Part shown: piece after piece, positions 65 through 31,675 of the stretch
Layout of the letters: every line of letters starts with the position of its first letter
How positions within the stretch are numbered: position 1 is the stretch's first letter
Source: an uncultured Spirochaetota bacterium
GTDB lineage: Bacteria; Spirochaetota; Spirochaetia; SZUA-6; Fen-1364
DNA length: 39,549 nt
Assembly: GCA_963745235.1 (NCBI GenBank)
Contig: CAVUXE010000012.1
Coordinates: 1 to 39,549 of the forward strand
Direction of reading: 5' to 3'
The notes under the pieces: generated by a model
What the model saw: only the letters and a program-made list of their open reading frames with translations
Told to the model about the DNA's origin: nothing
The model's database searches: none
Translations under genes and position numbers: made by a program

Positions 65-370
65 ATGAAGCACGACCGGGAGTTCTGGACTCGTCACGTT
101 GAGAACTGGCGGGCAAGCGGGCTGACACAGAAAGCGTATTGCACTCGCCGCCGGCTGGCGAAGGGAAGCCTGGGCTACTGGGCATCGACACTGGGGCGGC
201 GGAAGGCAGCGGTGACGGACCTGGTGGAGGTCGGACGTACCGAGGTCAAGCCGCCGCAGTCGAACTGCCCTATCGAGTTGGCCGTGCAGGGTGGGTATCT
301 GCTTCGGCTGTGGCCGGGGGTGGAGCCCGCACACCTGCGCCTGGTGCTCTCGGTGCTGGAGCGCCGCTGA
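65..370 (+). CDS. tnpA: IS66 accessory protein TnpA
   Basis: FWTRHVENWRASGLTQKAYC...SLGYW motif; GAGGAGG upstream of ATG 65. Confidence 0.9.
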   Translation: MKHDREFWTRHVENWRASGLTQKAYCTRRRLAKGSLGYWASTLGRRKAAVTDLVEVGRTEVKPPQSNCPIELAVQGGYLLRLWPGVEPAHLRLVLSVLERR

Positions 371-723
371 TGATCGGCTTGGAGGTCAAAGAGGCGCGGG
401 TCTTTGTGCGGCCGGGCCGCACCGACATGCGCAAGCAGATCAACGGGTTGGCCGTAATGGCGGAGCAGGTGATGGAGGCCAGCGTCTTTGAGCCTTCACT
501 GTTTCTGTTCTGCAACGGTGAGCGACGCATTCTGAAGGCGTTGTACTGGGATCGCAATGGGTTTTGTCTATGGCAAAAGAGACTGCAGAAAGATCACTTC
601 CCCTGGCCTCGAAGCAGCGAGCAGGCCCGCTTGGAGATCGACACGGAGAAGTTGCGCATGCTGCTGGAGGGCATCGACTTCTGGTCGGCACACCAGCCGT
701 TGAGCTACCAGCGAGTGAGCTGA
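370..723 (+). CDS. tnpB: IS66 accessory protein TnpB
   Basis: TDMRKQINGL...LFLFCN...LKALYWDRNGFCLWQKRL; ATG overlaps the tnpA stop (TGATG). Confidence 0.95.
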   Translation: MIGLEVKEARVFVRPGRTDMRKQINGLAVMAEQVMEASVFEPSLFLFCNGERRILKALYWDRNGFCLWQKRLQKDHFPWPRSSEQARLEIDTEKLRMLLEGIDFWSAHQPLSYQRVS

Positions 724-765
724 AAAAAGATAGCCGAAAGCGGGAGAAATCATTGCCTTCGATCA

Positions 766-2325
766 TTGGGCTGTGATACTCTGCCCCGCGTGGAGGGGAA
801 CGTCGAGACGCTCGTGCTGGAGAACGCGCAGCTGCGGCGAGAGATTGCCGAACTTGCCAAGCGCGTGGAGATCCTCGCCGAGCAAAACGCGTGGCTGAAG
901 CAGCGGTTCTTCGGGCGCAGCAGCGAAGCGCTGAGCCTCGAGGAGCAGCGTCAGCTAAAGCTGTTCGACGAGGCGGAGCTTGCCGCCGCAGAGTCGGAGA
1001 GCACACGGGGGCAGCTCGACCTGGTTCGCATTCCCGAGCATGTGCGGCAGCAGCCCAAGCGGAGACCGCTACCGCAGGCCCTCCCGCGAGTAGAAGTGAT
1101 CATCGACATCCCCGAAGAGCAGAAGCACTGTGGCTGCGGCGCTGAGTTGGTGCGCATCGATGAGGAATCCAGCGAGAAGCTGGACGTGATTCCTCCGCAG
1201 CTTCGGGTGATTCGTACCATTCGACCGATGTACGCCTGCCATGTCTGCGAAGGCTCTGGGGATGAAGGACGGCCGGCGGTGCGTATCGCGCCGATGCCCC
1301 CCGCGATTATCGACAAGGGAATCGCAAGCGCAGGGTTGCTGGCCTACATCGTGACGAGCAAGTTCTGTGACTCTCTGCCGCTGTACCGCCAGCAGAAGCA
1401 GTTTGCGCGCATCGGGGTGGAGCTGTCCCGTCGGACGATGGCCGACTGGATGATCGCGGCCAGTGAAGCGTGCGCTCCGCTGATGAAACTCCTGGAGGTG
1501 AAAGTACGCTCGGGGCCGCTGCTGCAACTGGATGAGACACGCCTTCAGGTCCTGGGAGAGCCCGGACGAGCCAACACTGCGCTGAGTTACATGTGGGTCG
1601 CCCGTGGAGGGCCACCCGAGGCGCCGGTGATTCTGTACCACTATGCCCCCAGCCGCGGCACGGAGGTAGCAGTAGAGATGCTCGGGGACTACGAAGGCTA
1701 CGTACAGACCGACGGCTACGAAGTCTACGACCGAGCCTGTGACGGAGCGAAGAACGTGGTGCACGTTGGATGTTTTGCCCACGCACGTCGAAAGTTCCAC
1801 GATGCGCACAAGAACTCGAAAAAGGCGGGCAGCGCGGAAGAGGCCTTAGCGACGATCGCCGGACTGTACCGAGTAGAGAACCAACGGGAGCGCTACACGG
1901 ATCCGCAGGAGTTTGCGGCCGAACGACGTCGGCAGGTGGAACCAATTCTGGCGGAGTTCCACACCTGGCTGGAACGCCGAGCCGCTCAGGTTCCTCCCGA
2001 GACGTTGCTGGGCAAGGCGGTCGGCTACACGTTGGGGCAATGGCCCAAGCTCATTCGCTATCTGGACCACCCTGCGATGACCCCGGATACCAACTTGGTC
2101 GAAGGGGCCATACGTCCCTTTGTGCTAGGCCGGAAAAATTGGCTGTTCTCGGGCAGCCCCCGAGGTGCTACCGCCAGCGCGGTGCTGTTCAGCATCATCG
2201 AGACAGCTCGCGCGAACGGCAAGGAACCCTACTGGTATCTGCGCCAGCTCTTCGAGGCACTCCCAACGGCCCGTTCGGAGGCTGACATCCTGCGCCTATC
2301 CCCGTTCCGCTCCGCCGAGCCCTGA
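766..2325 (+). CDS. tnpC: IS66 DDE transposase TnpC (true start may be GTG 790)
   Basis: FGRSSE, CGCG zinc finger, LPLYRQ, LQLDET, QTDGY, CFAHARRKF, NLVEGAIRPFVLGRKNWLF. Confidence 0.97.
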   Translation: MGCDTLPRVEGNVETLVLENAQLRREIAELAKRVEILAEQNAWLKQRFFGRSSEALSLEEQRQLKLFDEAELAAAESESTRGQLDLVRIPEHVRQQPKRRPLPQALPRVEVIIDIPEEQKHCGCGAELVRIDEESSEKLDVIPPQLRVIRTIRPMYACHVCEGSGDEGRPAVRIAPMPPAIIDKGIASAGLLAYIVTSKFCDSLPLYRQQKQFARIGVELSRRTMADWMIAASEACAPLMKLLEVKVRSGPLLQLDETRLQVLGEPGRANTALSYMWVARGGPPEAPVILYHYAPSRGTEVAVEMLGDYEGYVQTDGYEVYDRACDGAKNVVHVGCFAHARRKFHDAHKNSKKAGSAEEALATIAGLYRVENQRERYTDPQEFAAERRRQVEPILAEFHTWLERRAAQVPPETLLGKAVGYTLGQWPKLIRYLDHPAMTPDTNLVEGAIRPFVLGRKNWLFSGSPRGATASAVLFSIIETARANGKEPYWYLRQLFEALPTARSEADILRLSPFRSAEP

Positions 2326-13108: not shown

Positions 13109-14210
13109 TGTCGGCAGGGTGTGTTCGTCACCGCATCCACCAGGGCCTGGATGTTCTCCACGGGCGTGTCGAGCTGCACGTGGTGGGTGGGCCCGATGAT
13201 CAGGCCGCCTCCCTTGCCGATGGTGGAAAGCCTCGTCGCGACCTCTTTCCGCACGTCATCGGGTCCCCCGAAGGGCAGGGTATGCTGCTCATCGATCGAG
13301 CCCCAGAAGCACAACTGCTTCCCGTAGGTCTCCTTGAGGAAGGCAGGATCCATGCTTCGGGGCTGCACGGGATTGAGCACGTCCACTCCGATCTCGATGA
13401 GCTCGGGGATCACGGGGTAGATCAGGCCATCAGAATGGTAGGCAACCTTCAGGCGGGGATTGATCCCCTTGATGGTGGAGATGAACCGCGCCATGCGAGG
13501 CTTGAGGAACCTGCGCCACGTGTCCGGGGACATGAGCATGGCGTTCTGCGTGCCGATGTCGTCTCCGATCCAGATCATGTCCACCCCCATGCGCGTCAGC
13601 CGCTCGGCAGCGCGCAGGTGATGAAGGAACGGGATGTCAAGAATGGCGTCGGCGGTTTCCGGCGCGGAGACGAAATCCATGAGGAGGCGCTCGTAGCCGC
13701 GAAGAGCCCACGCCGTCTCGAAGATCGTCGTGACCGTCACGCCGACAATCCAGTATTCGTCCTTGAAAGTGTCGAGGACCCACTGGGCTTCCGAGTAGAG
13801 CCCGGGGGCCTCGGGGTCCGGGGCGCGGTAGCCGGAGATTGCCGCGTCATCCTCAAGAGGATGATCCACCATCTCCGTGTAGAATCCCTCGCCGAACCTC
13901 GTGGAATAGGATGAGTTCCGCCACGTGATTCCCCACGAATCTTTATAGGTCTCGCTGCCCGGGATTGAAGACATCGTTTGCGTAGTAGCTGTTTGCCCAT
14001 CCCACGGAGGTCAGGAGCATGTCCTCCCCGAGCGCCCTTTCCAGCTCGTACGTATTGCCGCCGCCATGGGGATTGTGATGGGAGTCTGAGGCAATGTTCA
14101 CGGATTTGCGAAGCCTGTGCAGCGAACTCCGGCGTGAAGCTGATCTGCATCGGGCAGCGATCAGGCTCCTCGTGGTTCAGGGACATTGAGACACGTTCCC
14201 TGTGCTTCAT
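13105..14210 (-). CDS. URO-D family protein with two one-base insertions (near 14118 and 13960)
   Basis: Three frames join as MKHRERV...FTPEFA / RLRKSVNIASDSHHNPHGGGNTYELERALGEDMLLTSVGWANSYY / SETYKDSWG...GDDIG...YHSDG...NPVQP...GPTHHVQ. Confidence 0.85.
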
Positions 14211-14261
14211 TCAATCCTCCACTGGCAAGATCTATATCTGCGGTGAGAGCGAAAGCCTCTC

Positions 14262-14277
14262 AGTCATTCGAATGACT
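14262..14277. promoter_or_regulatory. Perfect 16-bp palindrome, candidate GntR operator
   Basis: AGTCATTCGAATGACT lies just downstream of the predicted minus-strand promoter. Confidence 0.6.
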
Positions 14278-14293
14278 AGTAAGATTTTTGGCC

Positions 14294-14321
14294 AGTATAC
14301 AGGACTCAGATCAGTTGTCAA
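14294..14321 (-). promoter_or_regulatory. Sigma70 promoter of the URO-D/ABC operon
   Basis: TTGACA-16 bp-TATACT on the minus strand. Confidence 0.7.
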
Positions 14322-14399
14322 ATTTATTCTGAAAGACTTCCAAATAGCATTTTCGTACAAGAATTTCGTGAAGGCTGCGGCGAACCCTTCCCTCTCACT

Positions 14400-14427
14400 C
14401 AGCGCGCTCCACAGCAGGAGCGCGCTG
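14400..14427. repeat. Inverted repeat (11-bp stem)
   Basis: CAGCGCGCTCC-acagca-GGAGCGCGCTG. Confidence 0.6.
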
Positions 14428-14519
14428 CAACTCTCGGGTTGATGCAGACGCCATGATTGCGATACAAAAATCCCATGGGAGGCTCTTGCCCTCATGGATG
14501 AAGCTCGGAAGATGGCACT

Positions 14520-14861
14520 ATGCGACGAAAGATCCGGGTAAGCTCGAACCACGACGAGCAAAAGGAAGAGCGGTTGCGGCCCAGCAGGTTTCTCGGCTAT
14601 GACAGGGACTCGCTTGGCATGTACGCCCTGCGCCGCGAGATGTTCGAGGTAGCGGAATCCCAGTTCCGGCGGGCCGCTTACCTCAATCCTTTTGAACCCA
14701 GATTCAAGCAGCATCTTGCGTGGGTTCTGTACAAGCAGGGCAAGCTTGTCGACGCAAAGCGATACATCGTGGAGGCGATCGGTCAGAATCCGCGGGACAA
14801 CGACAGCAGGCAGGTTCTCACGAAGATTGAAGAGAAAATGGGGGGCAGATCAATTCCATGA
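14520..14861 (+). CDS. Small tetratricopeptide-repeat protein
   Basis: LG...AESQFRRAAYLNP...LAWVLYKQGKLVDAKRYIVEAIGQNP; stop overlaps the next start (ATGA). Confidence 0.8.
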   Translation: MRRKIRVSSNHDEQKEERLRPSRFLGYDRDSLGMYALRREMFEVAESQFRRAAYLNPFEPRFKQHLAWVLYKQGKLVDAKRYIVEAIGQNPRDNDSRQVLTKIEEKMGGRSIP

Positions 14862-15481
14862 CCAGGCTCATTCTCGTGCGGCACGGGCAAACGGACTGGA
14901 ATGTGAACGAAAGGTTTCGTGGTCGGTTCGACGTGCCTCTGAACGCGACAGGATTGCACCAGGCGCAGTTGACAGCTCGATGGATCGCAGCTTCGTGGAA
15001 GCCGACGGTGGTCTATTCCAGCCCTCTTTCCAGGGCTCTCTCGACAGCGGAGGAGATCGCAGCCTCACTGTCCCTGAGCGTTGAAAGACTTCCCGAGCTG
15101 ATCGACGTGGACTTCGGCCAATGGGAAGGCCTGACCCCGGATGAGGTTCGCGCGAGATGGCCGCAGGAGATCCATGCCTGGTACTCAGCCCCGCACACCG
15201 TTCGCATTCCCGGGGGTGAGGGCCTAGACCATGTCCGCGAGCGCTGCATGGCGGCGCTTGCGCGTATCGGATCGAAACACGCGGGCCAGACCGTGGTCGC
15301 GGTTGCCCACACGGATCTCAATCGTACCCTGCTCCTTGTGGTGCTCGGACTGGGAAACGATCGGCTCTGGCATCTGAGACAGGACACCTGCGCCGTCAAC
15401 GAGATCGAGATCGAAAACGGCGATTTCACGCTTGTTTCCATGAACGAAACCGGCCACCTTCGCCGGCAACAACTGCCGTAG
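14858..15481 (+). CDS. Histidine phosphatase (GpmB/CobC-like phosphoglycerate mutase family)
   Basis: LVRHGQTDWN, SSPLSRA, DFGQWEG, GGE, VAH. Confidence 0.92.
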   Translation: MTRLILVRHGQTDWNVNERFRGRFDVPLNATGLHQAQLTARWIAASWKPTVVYSSPLSRALSTAEEIAASLSLSVERLPELIDVDFGQWEGLTPDEVRARWPQEIHAWYSAPHTVRIPGGEGLDHVRERCMAALARIGSKHAGQTVVAVAHTDLNRTLLLVVLGLGNDRLWHLRQDTCAVNEIEIENGDFTLVSMNETGHLRRQQLP

Positions 15482-15523
15482 ACCTGCATTGGCTTCGTCG
15501 TTGCCAGGCCGGCGTAGCCCGTC

Positions 15524-15552
15524 TTGCTCGTTCCTCCGATTGCCTGTAAATT
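15524..15552 (+). promoter_or_regulatory. Candidate promoter of riboswitch 1 transcript
   Basis: TTGCTC-17 bp-TAAATT, 6 nt before the aptamer. Confidence 0.5.
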
Positions 15553-15558
15553 GGGTCT

Positions 15559-15608
15559 GGAGATGGCATTCCTCCGTTGAACCGCCCTGCTGGCTGATGA
15601 TGCCTGAG
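15559..15608 (+). ncRNA. Fluoride riboswitch (crcB motif) #1
   Basis: GGAGATGGCATTCCTCC...AACCGCC...GGCTGATGATGCCTG: P1 GGAG/CTCC, pseudoknot GGCAT/ATGCC, conserved GATGG, AACCGC and GCTGATGA. Confidence 0.9.
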
Positions 15609-15676
15609 CATAAGCGAGCCTGCCGCGCGTTCTGCGCCGTCTTTTGCGGCCAGGTGGTGGGGAGGGCCGGAGAGCA

Positions 15677-16126
15677 ATGCCATTCAACGAAAATCACAGA
15701 CGCTACCTTCTCGCGACTTTTCAGCACATCGACAAGCTCATTGCGCGGGCTGTCGCCGCCATTGGACCGGCGAACGGTAGCCCGCTCTTTCCATCTTGCG
15801 CTCCAGACGTGACCCCTGCCCAACGGCAGATCATTGCTGACAGTCTGTCCAATTTCTGGAACGTCGCCCGCCGCTTCCTCGATGCCGTGCCCGTCCGCCC
15901 GGACGCGCCGTCGAAGGGGGCACTATGGTCGTTCCACGTGGCTCTCGACTTCGTCTGGGTCTCCCTTGCCGAACTGGAGCCGAAGCATCTCGCCAATTAC
16001 GGGCCCTTGGACGAAGATGCAGCCTCCGAGACAGAACGCGCACTGGCGGAGTTACAGGCGATTCTCCGTCAACTCACGGAATACCTGGACCGAGAAATGG
16101 GCGGCGGAGTCCAGTCCCATGCATGA
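15677..16126 (+). CDS. Hypothetical helical protein (149 aa), resembling the N-terminal module of some bacterial dynamin-like proteins
   Basis: GGAGAG RBS; MPFNENHRRYLLATFQHIDKL...SPLF...DVTPAQ...ELEPKHLANYGPL; the dynamin resemblance is from recall only. Confidence 0.7.
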   Translation: MPFNENHRRYLLATFQHIDKLIARAVAAIGPANGSPLFPSCAPDVTPAQRQIIADSLSNFWNVARRFLDAVPVRPDAPSKGALWSFHVALDFVWVSLAELEPKHLANYGPLDEDAASETERALAELQAILRQLTEYLDREMGGGVQSHA

Positions 16127-16356
16127 AAAGAGTGAGGCACAGATCCGGGAAGGCAGGCAGACGGCGCTCAGGTTCGTCGTCCTGATCGGCATCCTGAGCT
16201 TCTTCGCGGACTTCGTTCTGGTTCCTGGGCAGCGCAGCGCTTGGGTTTCTCTACGGGGTATCGTTGTTCTCACTGATTGCCGTGTCAGTCGCCTTGCAAC
16301 TTGGTGGGGTGCCCTGGTTCTGGCGTGTTGCGGTCTTGCGCGGTCGCGGCTCATGA
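16119..16356 (+). pseudogene. MFS transporter with most of the gene deleted
   Basis: First helix ALRFVVLIGILSFFADF joins out of frame at about 16215 to last helices FWFLGSAALGFLYGVSLFSLIAVSVALQLGGVPWFW...stop 16356. Confidence 0.75.
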
Positions 16357-16374
16357 CGGGGAGGTGTCTGCTTC

Positions 16375-17910
16375 ATGATTCGTTGTAGCGTGCTTACCAA
16401 AGAAGTTGATGGCAACGTCACGCAGGAGGCCCCAGAGGCTCCTGATTTCTTCGGTGACCTGAACCTGGATCAGATCGTGGATGGCATTACAGCGGGCAAA
16501 CAGGAATACAATCTAAAGCCATTCTTCAACGCTCCCCTGCGGGACGTGGATGCAATCATGTATCGCCAGGAAGTCATGAGAGACCTTGAAGACCGGCGCC
16601 TAGCCGACAAGGTCGATGCCTTCGCGAAAAACATGCGCGTGATGCGACAACACCTCACGCAGGCGGAGAAGCTGTACCACAAGCACCAGAAGGAGAGGTG
16701 GTTCCTGGACGCCGTAGAAATCTATTGCGAGGCGGTTCAAGGCCTGGCGCGCGAGCTGGCGGACCCGGCAGTGAAATCGCGCGGGATCATGGCTTTCCGC
16801 GAGTATGCGGCAGGGTATGTGACCTCCGAAGGCTTTTCCTCCCTCCTTGGGCAGACAAGAAAACTGCAGGCCGATCTGTCCTCAGTGCGATATTGCACCC
16901 TCGTGAGCGGACCCCGTGTCAGGGTGAGAAAGTATGAATCTGAAATCGACTACAGCGAGGACGTGCTGCAGACATTCGAGAAGTTCAAGCAAGGTGCAGT
17001 GAAGGACTATCTGGTCGCGTTCCGAAGTGGAAACGACATGAACCATGTCGAATCTCAAGTGCTCGACTGCGTTGCCCGGTTGTATCCTGAGATATTCCAG
17101 GACCTGGACGAATATTGCATTCGCAACGCCGGCTACCTTGATGAGACAATTGCCGCTTTTGACCGGGAAGTGCAGTTCTACCTTTCCTACCTGGACTTTA
17201 TTGCCGTTCTCAGGCATGCCGGACTGCCATTCTGCTATCCGGCTGTTTCCGACACAAGCAAGGAAATCTTCAGTGTCGAAGGCTTCGACCTGGCCCTTGC
17301 CCGCAAGCTGGCGGTAGAAAGCGCGTCCGTCGTCTGCAACGATTTCTTCCTGAAAGGAAAAGAGCGCATCATCATCGTGTCCGGTCCGAACCAGGGCGGC
17401 AAGACCACCTTCTCTCGCGCGTTTGGGCAGATGCACCACCTGGCCGCGCTCGGATGTGCGGTGCAGGGCCGGAAGGCGCAGCTTTTCCTCGTGGACAGGA
17501 TGTTCACCCACTTTGAGAAAGAGGAAGACATAAGAAACCTCCGGGGAAAGCTGGAGGACGACCTGGTGCGCATCCACCGGATCCTGGGCGAGGCAACGTC
17601 CGACAGCATCATCATCATGAATGAGATCTTCAACTCCACGACGTTGAAGGACGCAATCTTCCTCGGAAAGAAAGTCATGGAAAGGGCAATCAGCCGGGAT
17701 TTGATCTGCGTCTGCGTGACATTCATCGATGAGCTTTCTTCCATGAGTGAAAAGACCGTCAGCATGGTCAGCACAGTCGATGCCGCCAACACCGCTGTCC
17801 GGACCTTCAGGATCATGCGCAAGCCGGCGGACGGGCTTGCGTATGCGATATCGATCGCTGAGAAGTACCGGCTCACATATGATTCTCTTCGGGAACGCAT
17901 ACCCTCATGA
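16375..17910 (+). CDS. MutS-related ATPase A (domain V, no mismatch-binding domain; MutS4-type pair)
   Basis: FFGDLNLDQI, YRQEV, VVCNDF, Walker A SGPNQGGKTT, FTHFEKEE, IIIMNEIFNSTT; GGAGG RBS. Confidence 0.9.
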   Translation: MIRCSVLTKEVDGNVTQEAPEAPDFFGDLNLDQIVDGITAGKQEYNLKPFFNAPLRDVDAIMYRQEVMRDLEDRRLADKVDAFAKNMRVMRQHLTQAEKLYHKHQKERWFLDAVEIYCEAVQGLARELADPAVKSRGIMAFREYAAGYVTSEGFSSLLGQTRKLQADLSSVRYCTLVSGPRVRVRKYESEIDYSEDVLQTFEKFKQGAVKDYLVAFRSGNDMNHVESQVLDCVARLYPEIFQDLDEYCIRNAGYLDETIAAFDREVQFYLSYLDFIAVLRHAGLPFCYPAVSDTSKEIFSVEGFDLALARKLAVESASVVCNDFFLKGKERIIIVSGPNQGGKTTFSRAFGQMHHLAALGCAVQGRKAQLFLVDRMFTHFEKEEDIRNLRGKLEDDLVRIHRILGEATSDSIIIMNEIFNSTTLKDAIFLGKKVMERAISRDLICVCVTFIDELSSMSEKTVSMVSTVDAANTAVRTFRIMRKPADGLAYAISIAEKYRLTYDSLRERIPS

Positions 17911-19403
17911 AGGCATTTCTTCTGTCCAGGGACCAGGACTTTGATCTCCAGCGGAAACTGCCCTCGAATGAGCTGGCGCTGACGCAGGACCTGGAGCTGC
18001 AAACCCTGTTTGCCGCCATGGGGCTCGAAGACCAGATCCTCCTGGATGTGGCGCGGAAGGTTGTGCTTTCGACGTTGAACGATGTGGATGCGATCCGTTA
18101 TCGCCAGGACATCCTGAAGGATTGCCTGAAGAACGCCGCCACTGTTCGGGAGATATACAACCTGGCAGTCGAATCAATCGAAAAGGAAAAGAAGCACTAC
18201 CTGGGGATTTTCAGCAACTATCCGTCCACGATACTGCACAGGTCGGTTGACGTGCTTCAGATGTTCGTGGGCCAGCTGAAAAGCCTGCGGGGCGTCGCAG
18301 ATGAGCACGCCCACGGGTTCCAGTCAGAGGGCTTCACCAGACTTTTCGCGATGCTGCAGGCGGAGCTCAACGAGGAGTATTTTGCCCTCATCCAACACCA
18401 CCTCAGGGAACTTGCCCTGCGGGGAGGAGTTCTGATAAGCGCGGAGTTGGGAAAAGGGAACAAGGCAAGCAATTTCGTGCTTCGAAAGCAGAACGACCGT
18501 CATGGCCTGGTGCAGCGGATTTTCTCGAAGAGATCTCCCTCCTGCTCATTTTCCATCAGCGAACGGGATGAGAACGGAGCAAAGGCCCTGGCAGAACTGC
18601 GGGACCGCGGGATCAACCTGGTTGCCAACGCGCTTGCGCAGTCAACGGATCATATTCTCAGCTTCTTTCAGATGCTGCGGACCGAACTTGCCTTCTACGT
18701 GGGATGCTTGAATCTCTCAGAGCGGCTTGCGGTCAAGGGGGAGCCGACGTGCTTTCCCGAGGCGTCCAAGCCCGAAGACCATCGGCTGACTTTCCGGGGG
18801 CTTTACGATGTATGTCTGACCCTGAGCATGGAACCGCGGGCTGTTGGCAATGACGCGAACGCTGACGGAAAAGACCTCATGATCATCACAGGGGCGAATC
18901 AGGGCGGGAAGTCTACCCTGTTACGGGCCATGGGTCTTGCCCAGCTCATGATGCAAAGCGGCATGTTCGTGCCTGCGGAGTCTTTCCGATCCAATGTCTG
19001 TAATGCGCTCTTCACGCATTACAAGAGGGAAGAAGACACGACCATGCAGAGCGGAAAGCTCGACGAAGAGTTGAAACGGATGAGTGAGATCGTGGACACC
19101 CTGATTCCCAACTCCATCCTGCTCTTCAATGAATCTTTTGCCGCAACGAACGAGCGGGAAGGATCGGAGATCGCTCGACAGATCGTTGGCGCGCTGTCGG
19201 AAAAGGGGGTCAGGGTCTTCTACGTAACCCACCTGCACGATTTCGCGCACAGCTTTTTTATCAGGAAGATGGAAAAGGCAATCTTTCTGCGTGCGGAGAG
19301 GAGAGACGACGGGGCTCGGTCGTTCAAGATCCTTGAAGGCGAGCCCCTGGAAACAAGCTTCGGCGAGGACCTGTACACGAAGATCTTCGGAAACGGAAGC
19401 TGA
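17907..19403 (+). CDS. MutS-related ATPase B (domain V; MutS4-type pair)
   Basis: ATGA overlap with gene A; YRQDIL, AVGND, TGANQGGKST, FTHYKREE, LLFNESFAATN, VTH. Confidence 0.9.
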   Translation: MKAFLLSRDQDFDLQRKLPSNELALTQDLELQTLFAAMGLEDQILLDVARKVVLSTLNDVDAIRYRQDILKDCLKNAATVREIYNLAVESIEKEKKHYLGIFSNYPSTILHRSVDVLQMFVGQLKSLRGVADEHAHGFQSEGFTRLFAMLQAELNEEYFALIQHHLRELALRGGVLISAELGKGNKASNFVLRKQNDRHGLVQRIFSKRSPSCSFSISERDENGAKALAELRDRGINLVANALAQSTDHILSFFQMLRTELAFYVGCLNLSERLAVKGEPTCFPEASKPEDHRLTFRGLYDVCLTLSMEPRAVGNDANADGKDLMIITGANQGGKSTLLRAMGLAQLMMQSGMFVPAESFRSNVCNALFTHYKREEDTTMQSGKLDEELKRMSEIVDTLIPNSILLFNESFAATNEREGSEIARQIVGALSEKGVRVFYVTHLHDFAHSFFIRKMEKAIFLRAERRDDGARSFKILEGEPLETSFGEDLYTKIFGNGS

Positions 19404-19422
19404 ACGGAATTGGACCCTGTCT

Positions 19423-20835
<1,413 letters not shown>

Positions 20836-20867
20836 GGGACCCGTGGCGGAGTGACGTCGCAGGCGCA

Positions 20868-21734
20868 TCATCCTATCCATTTTACCGCGGCCTCGCAGAG
20901 TGAGGGTACCATTGGGATCAGTATGCTGGTGCCTTTCGAGCAGACTTCGAGGCCGATGTCCCGGACATGCGCTCCCGTTATATTGCACCGTGGAATGATA
21001 AAGGAGTCCACACCGTAAGGCTCTGTGGATTCCGTGGGGTCGCAGAGGTACACAAGCTCGAAGGGATTCAAAGCGATCAGTTGCCTGTGATGAGCCTCCT
21101 TCCGAGACTTTCCCCGAACTGACGCGAGCGCAGAGATGACAGGAGAGTTCCGCGAGAGACGGACGAGTGGGTCTTCGAGAAGGACCTTCCACTTGAAAGG
21201 CAGCTCCTCACGGCCTGGATCAACGGCTGGCAGCGGTTGGGGGACTCCCGCCAGCCTCCTGCGCAGAGCCAGGAGCGCCGGCTCCATTTCCTGACGAGCC
21301 ACCGTGTTGTACCTGATCGTCAAACGATCTCCAAAGGGGACAAAGCTCAGGCGGCCATAGAGGAGAATAGCCACATCCTCTATCGCGGCCACCTTTTCCA
21401 GCGGGATCGTGATCTTTACACCCGGTTGGGGCTTCTCCGTCCAGAGTCCGACGGCCCTCTCTCCGAGGGCCAAGACACTGTTCGGCGATATCACCTTCTG
21501 GGCGAGCGAGCCGATGGAACGCACCGCCCATGGGATTATGAAAATCTGACCCAGCTCATGGATGCTACAGACTTCGTCGAGGGCTTTCCTTGCTCCAGCG
21601 GGGATGTCTTCCTCCCGGCGCGGAGTATAGGGGTGACTGGCTCGTTCAGCGCGAAAATAGGGGCCACCCTCCGCTTCGGTAAAACGGATTTCCCACTTCT
21701 CGGCTGGGTCTTGGGGGCGAACAGCAGCACGCAT
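20868..21734 (-). CDS. Hypothetical protein (288 aa) downstream of a fluoride riboswitch
   Basis: Long ORF with GGGAGG RBS and globular composition; no family recognised. Confidence 0.75.
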   Translation of the reverse strand: MRAAVRPQDPAEKWEIRFTEAEGGPYFRAERASHPYTPRREEDIPAGARKALDEVCSIHELGQIFIIPWAVRSIGSLAQKVISPNSVLALGERAVGLWTEKPQPGVKITIPLEKVAAIEDVAILLYGRLSFVPFGDRLTIRYNTVARQEMEPALLALRRRLAGVPQPLPAVDPGREELPFKWKVLLEDPLVRLSRNSPVISALASVRGKSRKEAHHRQLIALNPFELVYLCDPTESTEPYGVDSFIIPRCNITGAHVRDIGLEVCSKGTSILIPMVPSLCEAAVKWIG

Positions 21735-21761
21735 AGGCGAGGGCCTCCCTTTGCAACACTG

Positions 21762-21808
21762 TCAGGAGTTATCAGCCTTTACAGCGGTTAGGGTGAACTC
21801 CATCGCCC
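21762..21808 (-). ncRNA. Fluoride riboswitch #3
   Basis: Minus strand GGGCGATGGAGTTCACCC-TAACCGC-TGTAAAG-GCTGATAACTCCTG: pseudoknot GGAGTT/AACTCC; one C-A mismatch in P1. Confidence 0.85.
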
Positions 21809-21973
21809 AAGTACATATGTATGTCTTTGGCGGCCCGGCGTCAACCACGCCTGCAAAGAGTCTGCATCGATGAGGAGATATTTGGCTGAGGTAGCGAGAC
21901 CGCCCTGACCCTGGCTGATCAGGGTACCTTACGGATGCTCTTTTGGTCGGCCAAAAAATGTTCCCATTTCCGC

Positions 21974-22290
21974 TGTAGATCGGCAGATTAAACGACCCCC
22001 ACCCGTCACTTTTGGCGACCCCACCCCCGTCACCTGAACGACCCCGACCAGCGATTGGCCGCCACAAGATCGTGATCCGCGCGATCCGAGATCTGGCAGC
22101 CCGAGAAGGTTGGCTGAAAGCCTGCGAGGTGCCGCGCGAGGGAGAGATTGCCCGGCTGTAGGAGCAGACGCTCGGCGCCAGCCGCCAAGCCGCGCATCCG
22201 CTGGAGGTGTAAATCGAAACAGGAGTGGCTTCGGAAAATGCACAGCTTCCAGGTTATCCATCGGTTGCTGAACCAGATGGGGGTGACTGC
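21974..22290 (+). mobile_element. istA: IS21-family left-end remnant with degenerate istA 5' part
   Basis: TGT terminus, three GACCCC(ACCCGTCAC) subterminal repeats about 23 bp apart, then GRHKIVIRAIRDLAAREGWL...HPLE...EWL...FQVIHRLL with stops and a frameshift. Confidence 0.6.
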
Positions 22291-22775
22291 GAAACCCATG
22301 ACGTTCGGCCCGCCCTGGGGACAGGGGCAGCACCGGGTCGAAACGGTCAAGGCGTGGACGTGGGGCTTCTCGTTAAGGGCAGAACATCGCGGCGTGGCGG
22401 GGCGGGTTGATATACAGCCCGATGATGTCAGCCAGTTCCTTTCAAACTCCCGGGTCATCGGAGACCATCTAGCGTTCTAGCCGATGCGGCTTCAATCCGG
22501 CCTTGGTCCATATTCGAGCCACCATCATGTACGACACGCCCAACTCGGCTGCGAGCTTTCGTGTGCCCCAGTGGGTCGAACCATCCTGCGGACCGTTGCG
22601 AGTCTTTGCAAGGATCTTCGCCTCCAGCTCCGCCGTTCGGACGCGAGGCTGATTGATACCTACACCTTGACAGTCATACAGCAAACGATCCCACTGAAAC
22701 TTGGCGCTGCTCTTCAGCCAAAAGGCTTGGTGAGCGTCGAAGCTTGCAAGGATAACCGTCTTCGACGCAACGCGT
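22291..22775 (-). pseudogene. IS630-family transposase fragment
   Basis: GSTHWGTRKLAAELGVS...LKPHRLE*...DDP / ADIIGLYINPP / LPLSPGRAERHGF across shifted frames. Confidence 0.85.
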
Positions 22776-22777
22776 AG

Positions 22778-23410
22778 CTATTCGGGTAGTCTTGCGGCAA
22801 TGTCTCTCTTGCCCTGCTCGGCGAACTCGGGCATCAGCCTCAATTTCCGAACAAGCTCGCGCTCCTGAGAGCGGCCGTGGTACAGATCCAGCACTTCTGC
22901 AACGGTGATATGATTGGGATGAGTGCGTATCAGTTCGAAGGAGTCACCGGTGCTCACAAGGCCCTCCCCTAAGGTTCGCATATGGAACCCAAGCTTGGCT
23001 GAATCCCGTGCTTTAATCCAAAGGCCAGAAATGCCTGTCAGTCGATCAAGGGTACGGCAAGGATCGCGAGGCAGCGAGATCTGAACCACGGCCTGCCCGG
23101 CTTGGAAAACGTCACCGATGCAGACGTCATTTTCACGAACGCCTTCCAGAGTGAGATTCTCGCAGAACGCACCGTACTGCATCTCATACCCATGCACTGA
23201 TTTCCACCAGTGGTAGTGTTCGGCGATGTAAACGCAAACGGATCGGTCTCTCCCGCCATGGTAGCGCAAGTTTCCCTGCCCGTCTCCGTCAAAGTTTTCG
23301 AAGCGAAGGAAAGCATCTCTTACGGCAGACTTCGATCCTCCTGTAACGAGCGTCCCATCGCCAACGGCTACAGATCTGGGCATACCGACGAAAATAGCCG
23401 CCACTTTCAC
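22778..23410 (-). CDS. MOSC-domain protein (YiiM-like)
   Basis: GDGQGNLRYHGGRDRSVCVY, GAFCENLT, CIGDVF, ISLPRDPC. Confidence 0.9.
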   Translation of the reverse strand: MKVAAIFVGMPRSVAVGDGTLVTGGSKSAVRDAFLRFENFDGDGQGNLRYHGGRDRSVCVYIAEHYHWWKSVHGYEMQYGAFCENLTLEGVRENDVCIGDVFQAGQAVVQISLPRDPCRTLDRLTGISGLWIKARDSAKLGFHMRTLGEGLVSTGDSFELIRTHPNHITVAEVLDLYHGRSQERELVRKLRLMPEFAEQGKRDIAARLPE

Positions 23411-30397: not shown

Positions 30398-31310
30398 GTA
30401 AGCGCTCTGTGAACCGCCTTGCGGACTCAGATCTCTCGGACGAGCTCGTCGGGGCGAAGATTCTGCGGTAGCAGCCGCTCGTCGTCTTCGGTCGAGGTGG
30501 CGCCAATCACGTTGGCCAGGAGAAATCGCAAGTACCAGTAGGGCTCGTGCCCGTTGGCCTTCGCGGTCTCAACGATGCTGCACAAGGCGGCACTGGCGTA
30601 TGCGCCGGCGGGGGTGTCGGCAAGAGGAAGTTCTTTCGTCCCACGACAAGGGGCCGTATCGCGTTCTCGGCCAGATTGTTGTCAGGACGCAGGATCCCAT
30701 TTTCCGTATAGCGGGTCAGCCGATCCCACTGTCCCAGCGCGTACCCAACAGCCTTGCCCAGCAGGCCTTGCGGCGGGGTCTGGTCATTCAGCAATCCAAG
30801 CTGCTCCTTGATCTTCGTGAGGATCGGCTGAGCTTTCTGCTGCCTGAGCTCGGCTATCTGCGGGGCGCCAAGCGTGGGCGGCTCTCCCGTTGGAGCTGAC
30901 CTTCGTGACATCCACGAACTTCCGTCGCGCATGCGCCCAGCAGCCGAGCATCAGGATGCCTGGCTTCTTGCCGAGCTTGTCGTAGCCCTTGTAGCCGTCG
31001 GTCTGAACGTAGCTTTCATAGTCGTCGAGAAACTCGAAGGGCACGTCCCCGCTTGGCGAAGGAAAGTACTGAAAGACCAGCGACGGTTTCTCGGGCTCTC
31101 CCCCACGGTAGACCCACATATAGGATTTCGACTCTGGCTCGCGGCCGGGCTCTTTCAGAACCTGCAGCGTTGTCTCGTCGATCTGCACATGGGGGCCCGC
31201 ACGGATCTTCTGGCTCAACAACTCCAATAGCGGCTCAAGGCGCTGGGCCGTCTGAATTGCCCAGTTGCACATCGTCGCTCGCGACAGATCCACCCCAATA
31301 CGGGCAAGAA
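30398..31310 (-). mobile_element. tnpC: Decayed IS66 element (right end plus tnpC fragments)
   Basis: GTAAGCGCTCTGTGAACCGCC terminus at 30398; LSRATMCNW, QIDET, QTDGY, CWAHARRKF, DNNLAENAIRP with a deletion and frameshifts. Confidence 0.9.
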
Positions 31311-31675
31311 TCTTCCAAATCGTCCTTATGTACACCTGATTCACAAAGGCCGGATTCATGCTGGCCTACCAGGAGACCGGCAGCGCCAAAGGCAAGTCTG
31401 TCCATGATTTGATTCGGGTGTGGCTCGTTGATGAGGAGCACACGCTGTACAGCCAGGGGAAGCTGAAGGAAGAACAGCGCTGCGCCCAGCGGGAGTCGGA
31501 CAAGACCCGAACGAGACGGAGGTGCGCTCACCACGCGTGGTAGAGGATTACGAGGGGTAGCATAGAGGTATCTTTCCACCATACCGAGGATCACTAACTT
31601 CCATGGACGGGCGGGGAACGCGGATATAGGATTTGCGCCATACCCGCTTGCGGGAAGATTGCTGAGGAGGATTCC

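Follow-up and report, generated by a model that had tools for sequence, protein, structure and literature searches.

The MutS4A/MutS4B gene pair, its link to fluoride riboswitches and a predicted heterodimer with asparagine at both Walker B motifs

MutS4A and MutS4B are paralogous MutS-like ATPases encoded by adjacent genes, and the family that they form is tied to fluoride riboswitches. The present analysis concerns one such pair in a stretch of 39,549 nucleotides (nt) from an uncultured Spirochaetota bacterium (assembly GCA_963745235.1, contig CAVUXE010000012.1), hereafter the window, in which mutS4A (16375..17910, + strand; 511 amino acids (aa)) is followed by mutS4B (17907..19403, + strand; 498 aa), the A stop codon and the B start codon overlapping in the four letters ATGA (17907..17910, + strand). 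The two products, hereafter A and B, very likely form a heterodimer, as indicated by gene order and structure modelling. Their nucleotide sites, as read from aligned motifs, are asymmetric, both being without the carboxylate that acts as Mg ligand and both keeping the catalytic Glu. We give about an even chance to the proposal that MutS4AB is a fluoride-induced, obligate heterodimeric clamp ATPase with Mg-weak sites.

Part of this picture was already known. The MutS4 pair was described by Lin et al. in 2007 (Nucleic Acids Research, PMC2190696), and mutS appears among the genes behind the crcB RNA in a passage of Weinberg et al. 2010 (PMC2864571), so that the association of mutS with the fluoride RNA was known in outline. 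The gene recorded there shares with the present pair a MutS-like product and an RF01734 context in the 5' untranslated region; in the available part of that paper it is termed DNA repair mutS, without analysis of subfamily, heterodimer or motifs. What is new here is the quantified riboswitch linkage, the Asn-Glu, Gly-Lys and His-versus-Phe signature, the fold made of domains III, IV and V, the heterodimer model joined at the clamp ends, and the connection to the biochemistry of the E. coli MutS mutant D693N. Riboswitch specialists will find no surprise in the linkage as such, which nevertheless opens to clean tests a pair of genes that is very widespread and has long gone unexplained. The pairs, named 19 years ago, are strongly conserved (54–68% identity to the protein of the window among loci whose records name more than 10 phyla), and three threads, namely MutS4 phylogeny, mutS in lists of fluoride-riboswitch genes and the D693N data, are joined here into a question that can be tested at the bench.

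The gene pair and its family

MutS_V (PF00488) is the sole Pfam family recognised in A (E 1.3e-16, 61.5 bits) and in B (E 1.2e-20, 74.7 bits; cut-off 30.2). The two proteins share 25% identity over 406 columns (E 2e-20) and are thus paralogues, in agreement with the first-pass annotation made from the sequence, which had described two paralogues of roughly 500 aa coupled by ATGA. Against the NCBIfam models the pair stays far below the cut-offs, with 56–63 bits for MutS1 (TIGR01070, cut-off 641.7) and 45–67 bits for MutS2 (TIGR01069, cut-off 400). Smr and KOW domains were absent from A and B in the Pfam scan, MutS domains I and II, the first of which carries the Phe-x-Glu mismatch-binding motif, were found neither by Pfam in the pair nor by fold comparison of B, and a scan of 30 open reading frames (ORFs) of the window turned up no MutL. 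The same genome encodes a separate canonical MutS in which STF, MDE and THF are kept, providing an internal control. Canonical mismatch repair was ruled out as a role for the pair, given the absence of domains I and II, the lack of MutL in the window and the genome having its own MutS; on the missing mismatch-recognition part, the missing Smr domain and the lack of a nearby mutL, the first-pass annotation was right. The defence models of PADLOC gave P-loop-level matches for B (13–20 bits) and none for A.

The passages of Lin et al. 2007 describe MutS4A and MutS4B as products of adjacent genes with overlapping stop and start codons, comprising the C-terminal MutS ATPase region only and scattered over distant phyla. 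The same adjacency and overlap are found in the window, where nothing differs in kind, and the earlier naming of a tandem MutS4-type pair is well founded. By its gene anatomy, the window pair matches the MutS4A/MutS4B subfamily. A putative place in the clades of Lin et al. has indirect support from a Thermoanaerobacter genome (L001/G001) that holds the pair together with MutS1-like and MutS2-like genes, as does the T. tengcongensis row in Table 2 of that paper. Neither fluoride nor a riboswitch is mentioned in the available passages, which state that MutS4 function was not studied.

Relatives of B are numerous, with at least 8000 candidates at E <= 0.001, and 119 among the matches listed (the window protein excluded) are 65–92% identical to it. 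Of 604 pattern matches in species-representative genomes, 561 proved to be relatives, which is a lower bound, and 991 clusters built at 50% identity score E <= 1e-30. For comparison of gene neighbourhoods, the best 80 loci from species-representative genomes were used (54–70% identity), whose records name more than 10 phyla. Both genes are present in 77 of these loci, and in every one of them A stands directly before B; the remaining three are cut by contig ends. A 4-nt overlap is shared by 66 of the 77 pairs (ATGA in 61, GTGA in 5). Two of 150 more distant representatives, P0126 (1026 aa) and P0147 (942 aa), unite the two in one polypeptide, the A-like half coming first and the B-like half second. 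They represent natural MutS4A-B fusions, unless the gene calls are frameshifted where the ATGA would lie.

Linkage to fluoride riboswitches across related loci

Matches to the Rfam model RF01734 above the gathering score were obtained in 9 of 11 related loci, and a same-strand match lay upstream of the pair in 8 of the 11. A covariance model of our own (R1), built from 21 of these aptamers and applied at E <= 0.01, gave 123 matches in 932 kb, distributed over 63 of the 80 loci. Upstream distances were counted in 68 loci, the 12 with less than 1300 nt of sequence ahead of A being dropped. A same-strand riboswitch was found upstream of the pair in 58 of these 68 loci, a fraction of the kind that the first-pass annotation had named as a check and that ties the family to fluoride riboswitches. 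The distance from riboswitch to A was at most 300 nt in 34 loci, 301–1000 nt in 7 and further (up to 3.3 kb) in 17, the remaining 10 having none. Of the 17 loci with the longest distances, 12 have genes for enolase, a dynamin-like GTPase, an MFS transporter, Usp or a Na+/H+ exchanger in the interval, running in the same direction, and several of the 10 loci without riboswitch are long co-directional runs of such island genes that reach the edge of the flank.

The company kept by the pair is recurrent. Among the 80 loci, the neighbours include dynamin-like GTPases and Usp (24 loci each), MFS transporters and enolase (20 each), Na+/H+ exchangers, CrcB and Mrp/NADH-dehydrogenase-like genes (12 each), His_Phos_1 proteins (8) and pyrophosphatase (5). 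A 2024 fluoride review (PMC11139923) gives in one of its passages, as riboswitch-associated, fluoride exporters, Na+/H+ antiporters, pyrophosphatase, enolase, haloacid-dehalogenase-like genes and formate hydrogen lyase; MutS is mentioned nowhere in it, and dynamin was not found in the available part of its text. As a separate observation, genes for dynamin-family GTPases (for example L058:7622-9376, - strand, and L071:8259-9851, + strand) often stand directly behind a fluoride riboswitch, as in loci L038, L048, L062, L070 and L075.

Nucleotide-site motifs

The first-pass annotation had pointed to a GxNQGGK Walker A motif, to Asn in place of Asp at Walker B and to GKL where MutS has Ser-Thr-Phe (STF), and all three are present in the sequence. 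In A, the Walker A motif GPNQGGKT (17383-17409) is followed by the Walker B motif IIIMNE, with Asn416-Glu417 at 17620-17625, and by Phe450 (17722-17724), which replaces the His of the H-loop. In B, the corresponding elements are GANQGGKS (18891-18917), ILLFNE with Asn408-Glu409 at 19128-19133, and the H-loop His442 at 19230-19232, all on the + strand as in A. HMMER alignments to solved MutS2 proteins and to Taq MutS place LLFNE of B opposite LVLIDE, LVLFDE or LVLLDE, GKL opposite STF, and VTH opposite the TH of the H-loop. Since the alignments place the motifs, the Asp-to-Asn change and the STF replacement in B are alignment-supported rather than read from the pattern alone: the canonical Walker B Asp-Glu and Ser-Thr-Phe loop are not seen, and the aligned positions hold Asn-Glu and Gly-Lys-Leu/Phe.

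These features were counted in 72 A and 80 B sequences, the window included, and in a further 150 representatives at 42–57% identity. The Walker A Lys is invariant (72/72 A, 80/80 B). The Walker B Asn is present in 72/72 A, in 79/80 B (the exception, at locus L007, having Asp) and in 148/150 representatives, and the Glu that follows it in 72/72 A, 80/80 B and again 148/150 representatives. The Lys of the signature loop (G-K-L/F) was found in 72/72 A and 80/80 B, with Lys or Arg in 147/150 representatives, while the residue preceding the loop Gly is Ser in 77/80 B and Arg in 59/72 A. The H-loop position holds His in 80/80 B and 145/150 representatives and Phe in 71/72 A, and it is because of this His in B and Phe in A that the two sites are described as asymmetric. 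Paralogous subunits with unequal sites are also found in the eukaryotic MSH2-MSH6 and MSH2-MSH3 pairs and in heterodimeric ABC ATPases with one degenerate site; however, the MSH pairs have Asp-Glu and the H-loop His in both subunits, together with mismatch-binding domains, whereas MutS4A has exchanged that His for Phe.

The same Walker B change at the same position is known from the E. coli MutS mutant D693N (Lebbink et al. 2010, PMC2857095; PDB 3k0s), although D693N was made by engineering as a single change and is impaired in mismatch repair, whereas MutS4 carries the Asn naturally, in both subunits and together with the trans-loop Lys. Passages of that study report that the metal site of D693N is empty with ADP bound, that its ATP dissociation constant (Kd) is about 0.5 uM with either Mg or EDTA, as compared with 0.034 uM (Mg) and 0.32 uM (EDTA) for the wild type, and that its kcat equals that of the wild type at 10 mM Mg and rises to 18 per min at higher Mg. 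The exchange thus weakens the binding of Mg2+ in E. coli MutS while hydrolysis is retained. By analogy, it is a reasonable inference that Asn together with a Lys offered in trans, which adds positive charge, would hold Mg2+ weakly and so resist trapping as an ADP-Mg-fluoride complex. That such trapping could concern MutS-type sites is indicated by PDB entry 1nne, by its title a MutS-ADP-BeF3 complex, according to which metal-fluoride nucleotide adducts occupy MutS sites. The earlier notion that an altered Mg site might tolerate or sense Mg-fluoride gains plausibility only from the D693N biochemistry.

These motifs could also be taken to describe a protein that does not hydrolyse ATP at all, but serves as sensor or scaffold, its Asn sites binding ATP or a Mg-fluoride species as a signal. 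The loss of the Walker B Asp from both subunits and of the H-loop His from A is compatible with such a role, which is nonetheless very improbable when set against the near-invariance of the catalytic Glu, the Walker A Lys and the B His, and against D693N being still an active ATPase.

Fold of MutS4B and the heterodimer model

An AlphaFold2 model of B, based on a 142-row alignment containing both paralogue families, reached a predicted local distance difference test score (pLDDT) of 87.8 and a predicted template modelling score (pTM) of 0.86; a first model from 21 close homologues was poor (pLDDT 54) and was not used. In a Foldseek search with the B model the top matches were all MutS, MSH and MutS2 chains, down to E of about 1e-15. 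With VIA-align, B residues 13-498 were superposed on MSH3 532-1081 (Z 29.3) and on E. coli MutS 260-784 (Z 23–27), and on MutS2 cores from their residue 1 (Z 24–26; 7qv3, 7vuf, 9kce). On the evidence of this model, B has three domains only, namely III (lever), IV (clamp, in reduced form) and V (ATPase). The lever and clamp part of B goes undetected by sequence alone, and the fold evidence covers B only. By its place in the order of secondary-structure elements, the hairpin 175-194 between the lever helices of B may be assigned to the position of domain IV.

An architectural parallel is the MutS2 core (T. thermophilus 7vuf/7vuk, T. maritima 9kce, B. subtilis 7qv3), which shares with B domains III, IV and V and the absence of domains I and II. 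MutS2 is, however, a homodimer with Asp-Glu, STF and His and with KOW and Smr domains, whereas MutS4 would be a two-gene heterodimer with Asn-Glu and Gly-Lys-(Leu/Phe) and has neither extra domain. The parallel raises the possibility of a remodeller acting on a non-DNA target, in the way that B. subtilis MutS2 acts on ribosomes, candidate targets being ribosomes stalled by fluoride-trapped GTPases, or an enzyme poisoned by fluoride, enolase for example. Besides the shared core, MutS2 on collided disomes is a solved structure (by its title), enolase is present in 20 of the 80 loci and adjoins the pair in the window, and there is a weak similarity to KamC, the reactivase ATPase of lysine 5,6-aminomutase (NF052383), a protein likewise of about 500 aa with a MutS_V-type domain that gives weak collinear matches to B (E 3.2e-20) and A (E 1.2e-08). 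We regard this reading as improbable, since KOW and Smr are missing from the pair and co-location with enolase is common to every island gene. The KamC profile itself fits MutS2 far better (220–248 bits) than B (72.4 bits) or A (34.3 bits), both of which fall far short of its cut-off of 300, and a KamC-type reactivase was rejected as an identity for the pair.

For the complex, A residues 14-511 and B were modelled together, each with its own alignment, alongside three controls. The interface score ipSAE (interaction prediction score from aligned errors) was 0.66, 0.66 and 0.64 for A with B and 0.00 in the three controls; the mark applied to this score is reached by 116 of 157 solved complexes and by 2 of 215 mismatched pairs. 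At least 98% of the contacts agreed among the A-B runs, with a partner pLDDT of at least 81. As MutS dimers are among the solved structures, likeness to them may contribute to this result. The predicted interface includes strand pairing of A 171-177 with B 175-181, that is, between the clamp-like hairpins, and no confident contact of the ATPase heads is seen in the model, which is not read as absence of such contact. A MutS4A-MutS4B heterodimer is very likely because A precedes B in every locus holding both, the genes overlap by 4 nt in most of them, two single-polypeptide versions occur and the modelled pair is separated from its controls. The heterodimeric ATPase that the first-pass annotation had inferred, with a complex model as its check, thus receives model support in its dimer part.

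Fluoride control in the window

The first riboswitch of the window, an RF01734 aptamer at 15550..15613 (+ strand), was recovered by cmscan with 49.0 bits (gathering score 34, E 9.4e-11) and by R1 with 32.6 bits. It is followed by a weak terminator-like hairpin (15625..15647, + strand; a 5-bp stem, then CGTCTTTTGC) found by pattern scan, a possible expression platform that counts only as a lead, the scanned region holding 4 terminator-like sites with 4.5 expected from shuffles. The first gene behind it is a 149-aa ORF, U149 (15677..16126, + strand), followed at 16122..16217 (+ strand) by about 30 codons that match the N-terminus of MFS transporters in blastp before the similarity ends. Of these, 23 residues are 65% identical to the MFS N-terminus of locus L024, 8 further MFS proteins of the islands gave similar N-terminal matches, and in locus L043 an intact MFS gene stands between riboswitch and MutS4A; the segment looks like the remnant of a deleted MFS gene. 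The arrangement of U149, remnant and A is bridged at both junctions by DNA contigs from the runs of four studies.

U149 has no Pfam or NCBIfam family. Three further homologues at 59–68% identity were found, and blastp gave 16 ORF matches (E <= 0.006) spread over 13 related loci; in 5 of these matches the ORF part concerned is the N-terminus of a dynamin-like GTPase. The family of U149 is small and helical, with a length of about 140 aa and conserved LNENH... and ...YG segments, and its members recur in fluoride islands. In related islands the U149-like unit may be seen as a stand-alone gene, often beside enolase or mutS4A, or as the N-terminus of dynamin-like GTPases (L042, L058, L064, L071 and L072).

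Because U149, the MFS remnant and 761 nt intervene between riboswitch and A, fluoride control of the pair in the window is plausible but indirect, and would need read-through across U149 and the remnant. It could alternatively be supposed that the pair is not fluoride-controlled in this genome, the riboswitch governing U149 only and A/B being transcribed from an undetected promoter within the 248 nt that remain where the MFS gene was lost. The distance, the remnant and a second terminator-like hairpin (16224-16245) in between are all in keeping with this, as is the minimum free energy fold of 15545-15685, in which the 5' half of the aptamer (15562-15576) pairs with the GGAG/AUG region of U149 (15670-15684). 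Such pairing could be an arrangement against the ribosome-binding site, hinting at translational control of U149, with a z of -0.77 that is no better than shuffles and not significant. On the other side, a pattern scan found no sigma-70-like site in 15300-19700, U149-like genes stand directly before mutS4A in L004, L014, L015 and L022, and operons in which a riboswitch stands first and the pair last, with further genes between them, are frequent, as the 12 distant loci with island genes in the interval show. We consider independence from fluoride unlikely in this genome. A covariance search of 14000-23000 with filters off found no second or degenerate riboswitch in the gap before A. The earlier claim that the pair is under fluoride control therefore holds in that the riboswitch is real and the family is linked to it, and falls short in that the riboswitch of the window is not adjacent to the pair.

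Proposed mechanism, substrate and alternatives

In the proposed mechanism, the unit would be read in the order riboswitch, U149, MFS remnant, mutS4A and mutS4B, the distal pair being made when fluoride rises. Each subunit would consist only of lever, reduced clamp and ATPase. B, with its catalytic His, could turn ATP over, and the A site, with Phe in that place, would probably bind ATP rather than turning it over. As both sites have Asn for the Mg2+-coordinating Asp and Lys in the place of the STF loop, nucleotide binding may, by analogy with D693N, be largely independent of Mg2+, the metal being lost in the ADP state and hydrolysis retained. Such an enzyme would be hard to trap as ADP-Mg-fluoride; when the ordinary Mg-dependent enzymes of phosphoryl transfer are poisoned by fluoride, it could continue its cycle as a nucleotide-gated clamp on a nucleic acid, for which DNA is the likeliest candidate. 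Induction in the window, the weakness of the Mg sites, fluoride tolerance and the substrate are the parts of this scheme that we infer, and DNA, though the most likely substrate, is given less than an even chance.

Several observations weigh against this scheme. Riboswitch linkage is incomplete, with 10 of the 68 loci lacking an upstream riboswitch within the flank and only 40 of 68 retaining one at the stricter score of 34 bits. In the window itself, U149 and the 248-nt gap with the gene remnant separate the pair from its riboswitch, and the hairpin at 16224-16245 lies in between, although it is not above shuffle expectation. D693N still needs Mg for hydrolysis (PMC2857095), so that resistance to metal-fluoride trapping would not be automatic. 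The confident interface of the complex model joins A 102-236 with B 104-256 and not the ATPase domains that join solved MutS dimers, and since it lies away from the heads, reasoning from composite sites has to assume head engagement. The dynamin-like GTPases of the islands keep canonical Mg ligands (GxxxxGK(S/T) in 25 of 26 full-length ORFs, with an aligned DTPG at least 90% conserved), which speaks against a general re-tooling of Mg sites in these islands; a general Mg-site change across island NTPases was rejected on this ground. Both proteins are acidic overall (median isoelectric points 5.8 and 6.0), and the N-terminal part of A has a net charge of -9, giving weak support for DNA binding; as to the clamp segment, that of B is basic (median net +5) and that of A has -2. 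Finally, the only experiment found that bears on the substrate is small and heterologous, and the paper reporting it never mentions fluoride, riboswitch, Walker or ATPase.

In that experiment (Kim et al. 2017, PMC5742357), as given in passages of the paper, M. smegmatis showed more homeologous recombination at rpoB with the MutS4 operon (27/36 versus 5/16 sequenced colonies). The claim that the pair is unrelated to mismatch repair consequently stands only in part: the mismatch-recognition parts are absent, but this experiment links MutS4 to recombination. The operon belongs to a 13-gene non-mycobacterial island of M. yongonense Type I that comprises enolase, NADH-dehydrogenase/hydrogenase genes and MutS4A/B, and whose gene content matches that of the fluoride islands, suggesting that it may be open to reinterpretation. 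Literature searches joining fluoride riboswitch/crcB, MutS, enolase, mismatch repair and aminomutase reactivase returned nothing on MutS4 function.

The recombination result is also the natural starting point for an explanation that leaves fluoride aside, in which MutS4 is a modulator of DNA recombination or repair, a clamp like MutS2 or MSH4-MSH5, with Asn-Glu as a quirk of the lineage and a Mg site unrelated to the company kept in the islands. The B fold, identical to the MutS III-V core, its basic clamp segment and the island GTPases lacking a matching Mg-site change all agree with such a modulator. A mere quirk is nevertheless difficult to reconcile with the retention of Asn in nearly all representatives at 42–57% identity, though a single base change restores Asp, and its co-occurrence with an invariant trans-loop Lys points to selection on the chemistry of the site; on balance we hold this explanation to be rather unlikely, if one to be kept in view.

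A bolder version of the fluoride-induced clamp would make MutS4AB a naturally fluoride-proofed nucleoside triphosphatase. With Asn for the Mg-ligand Asp and the added trans Lys, nucleotide would be bound and released in the absence of firmly held Mg2+, so that transition-state mimics of the ADP-Mg-fluoride type could not lock the sites; the ring would be shut at the clamp hairpins, which would resemble the hinge of SMC proteins, with the ATPase heads as its gate, and DNA recombination or repair would be kept running while fluoride disables conventional ATPases, including the MutS of the cell itself. This remains a conjecture that is more probably wrong than right by a clear measure. Were it true, the Asn-Glu and Gly-Lys signature could stand as a general design rule for P-loop enzymes resistant to metal fluoride.

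Other features of the window and the genome

Convergent with the pair lies an enolase gene (19423..20793, - strand; TIGR01060, E 1.1e-198, the match beginning at residue 31). Its listed start overlaps an aptamer, so that translation probably begins at Met28 of this ORF, near 20712. The aptamer in question is the second fluoride riboswitch of the window, in the enolase leader (20735..20806, - strand; 54.2 bits, E 1.9e-12). A third (21756..21816, - strand; 42.2 bits, E 1.6e-08) precedes a 288-aa ORF (20868..21734, - strand) that starts 21 nt past it. This ORF has no Pfam, NCBIfam or PADLOC family and no homologue in the 80 loci; its neighbours in the atlas are unnamed clusters (0.94–0.96), with faint PH-like leads at 0.81. 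On the other side of the pair, a His_Phos_1 (phosphoglycerate-mutase-like) gene (14858..15481, + strand), of the family that recurs in 8 of the 80 islands, ends 69 nt 5' of the first riboswitch.

The window holds 3 of the 4 RF01734 matches in the whole 5.85-Mb genome assembly. CrcB was not found in this assembly, which is 86% complete. The fourth riboswitch (G000:C40:7319-7383, L082) precedes a Na+/H+ exchanger gene. A CLC-type gene elsewhere in the genome (G000:C59:31312-32350, L089/L090) is matched in two neighbouring reading frames, as could result from a frameshift or from faulty assembly. Mobile elements are present within the window, namely an IS66 element with TnpB and transposase (139..2325, + strand), a second IS66 transposase fragment (30784..31359, - strand) and, adjoining the fluoride island, a small HTH_32 transposase-like ORF (22469..22684, - strand).

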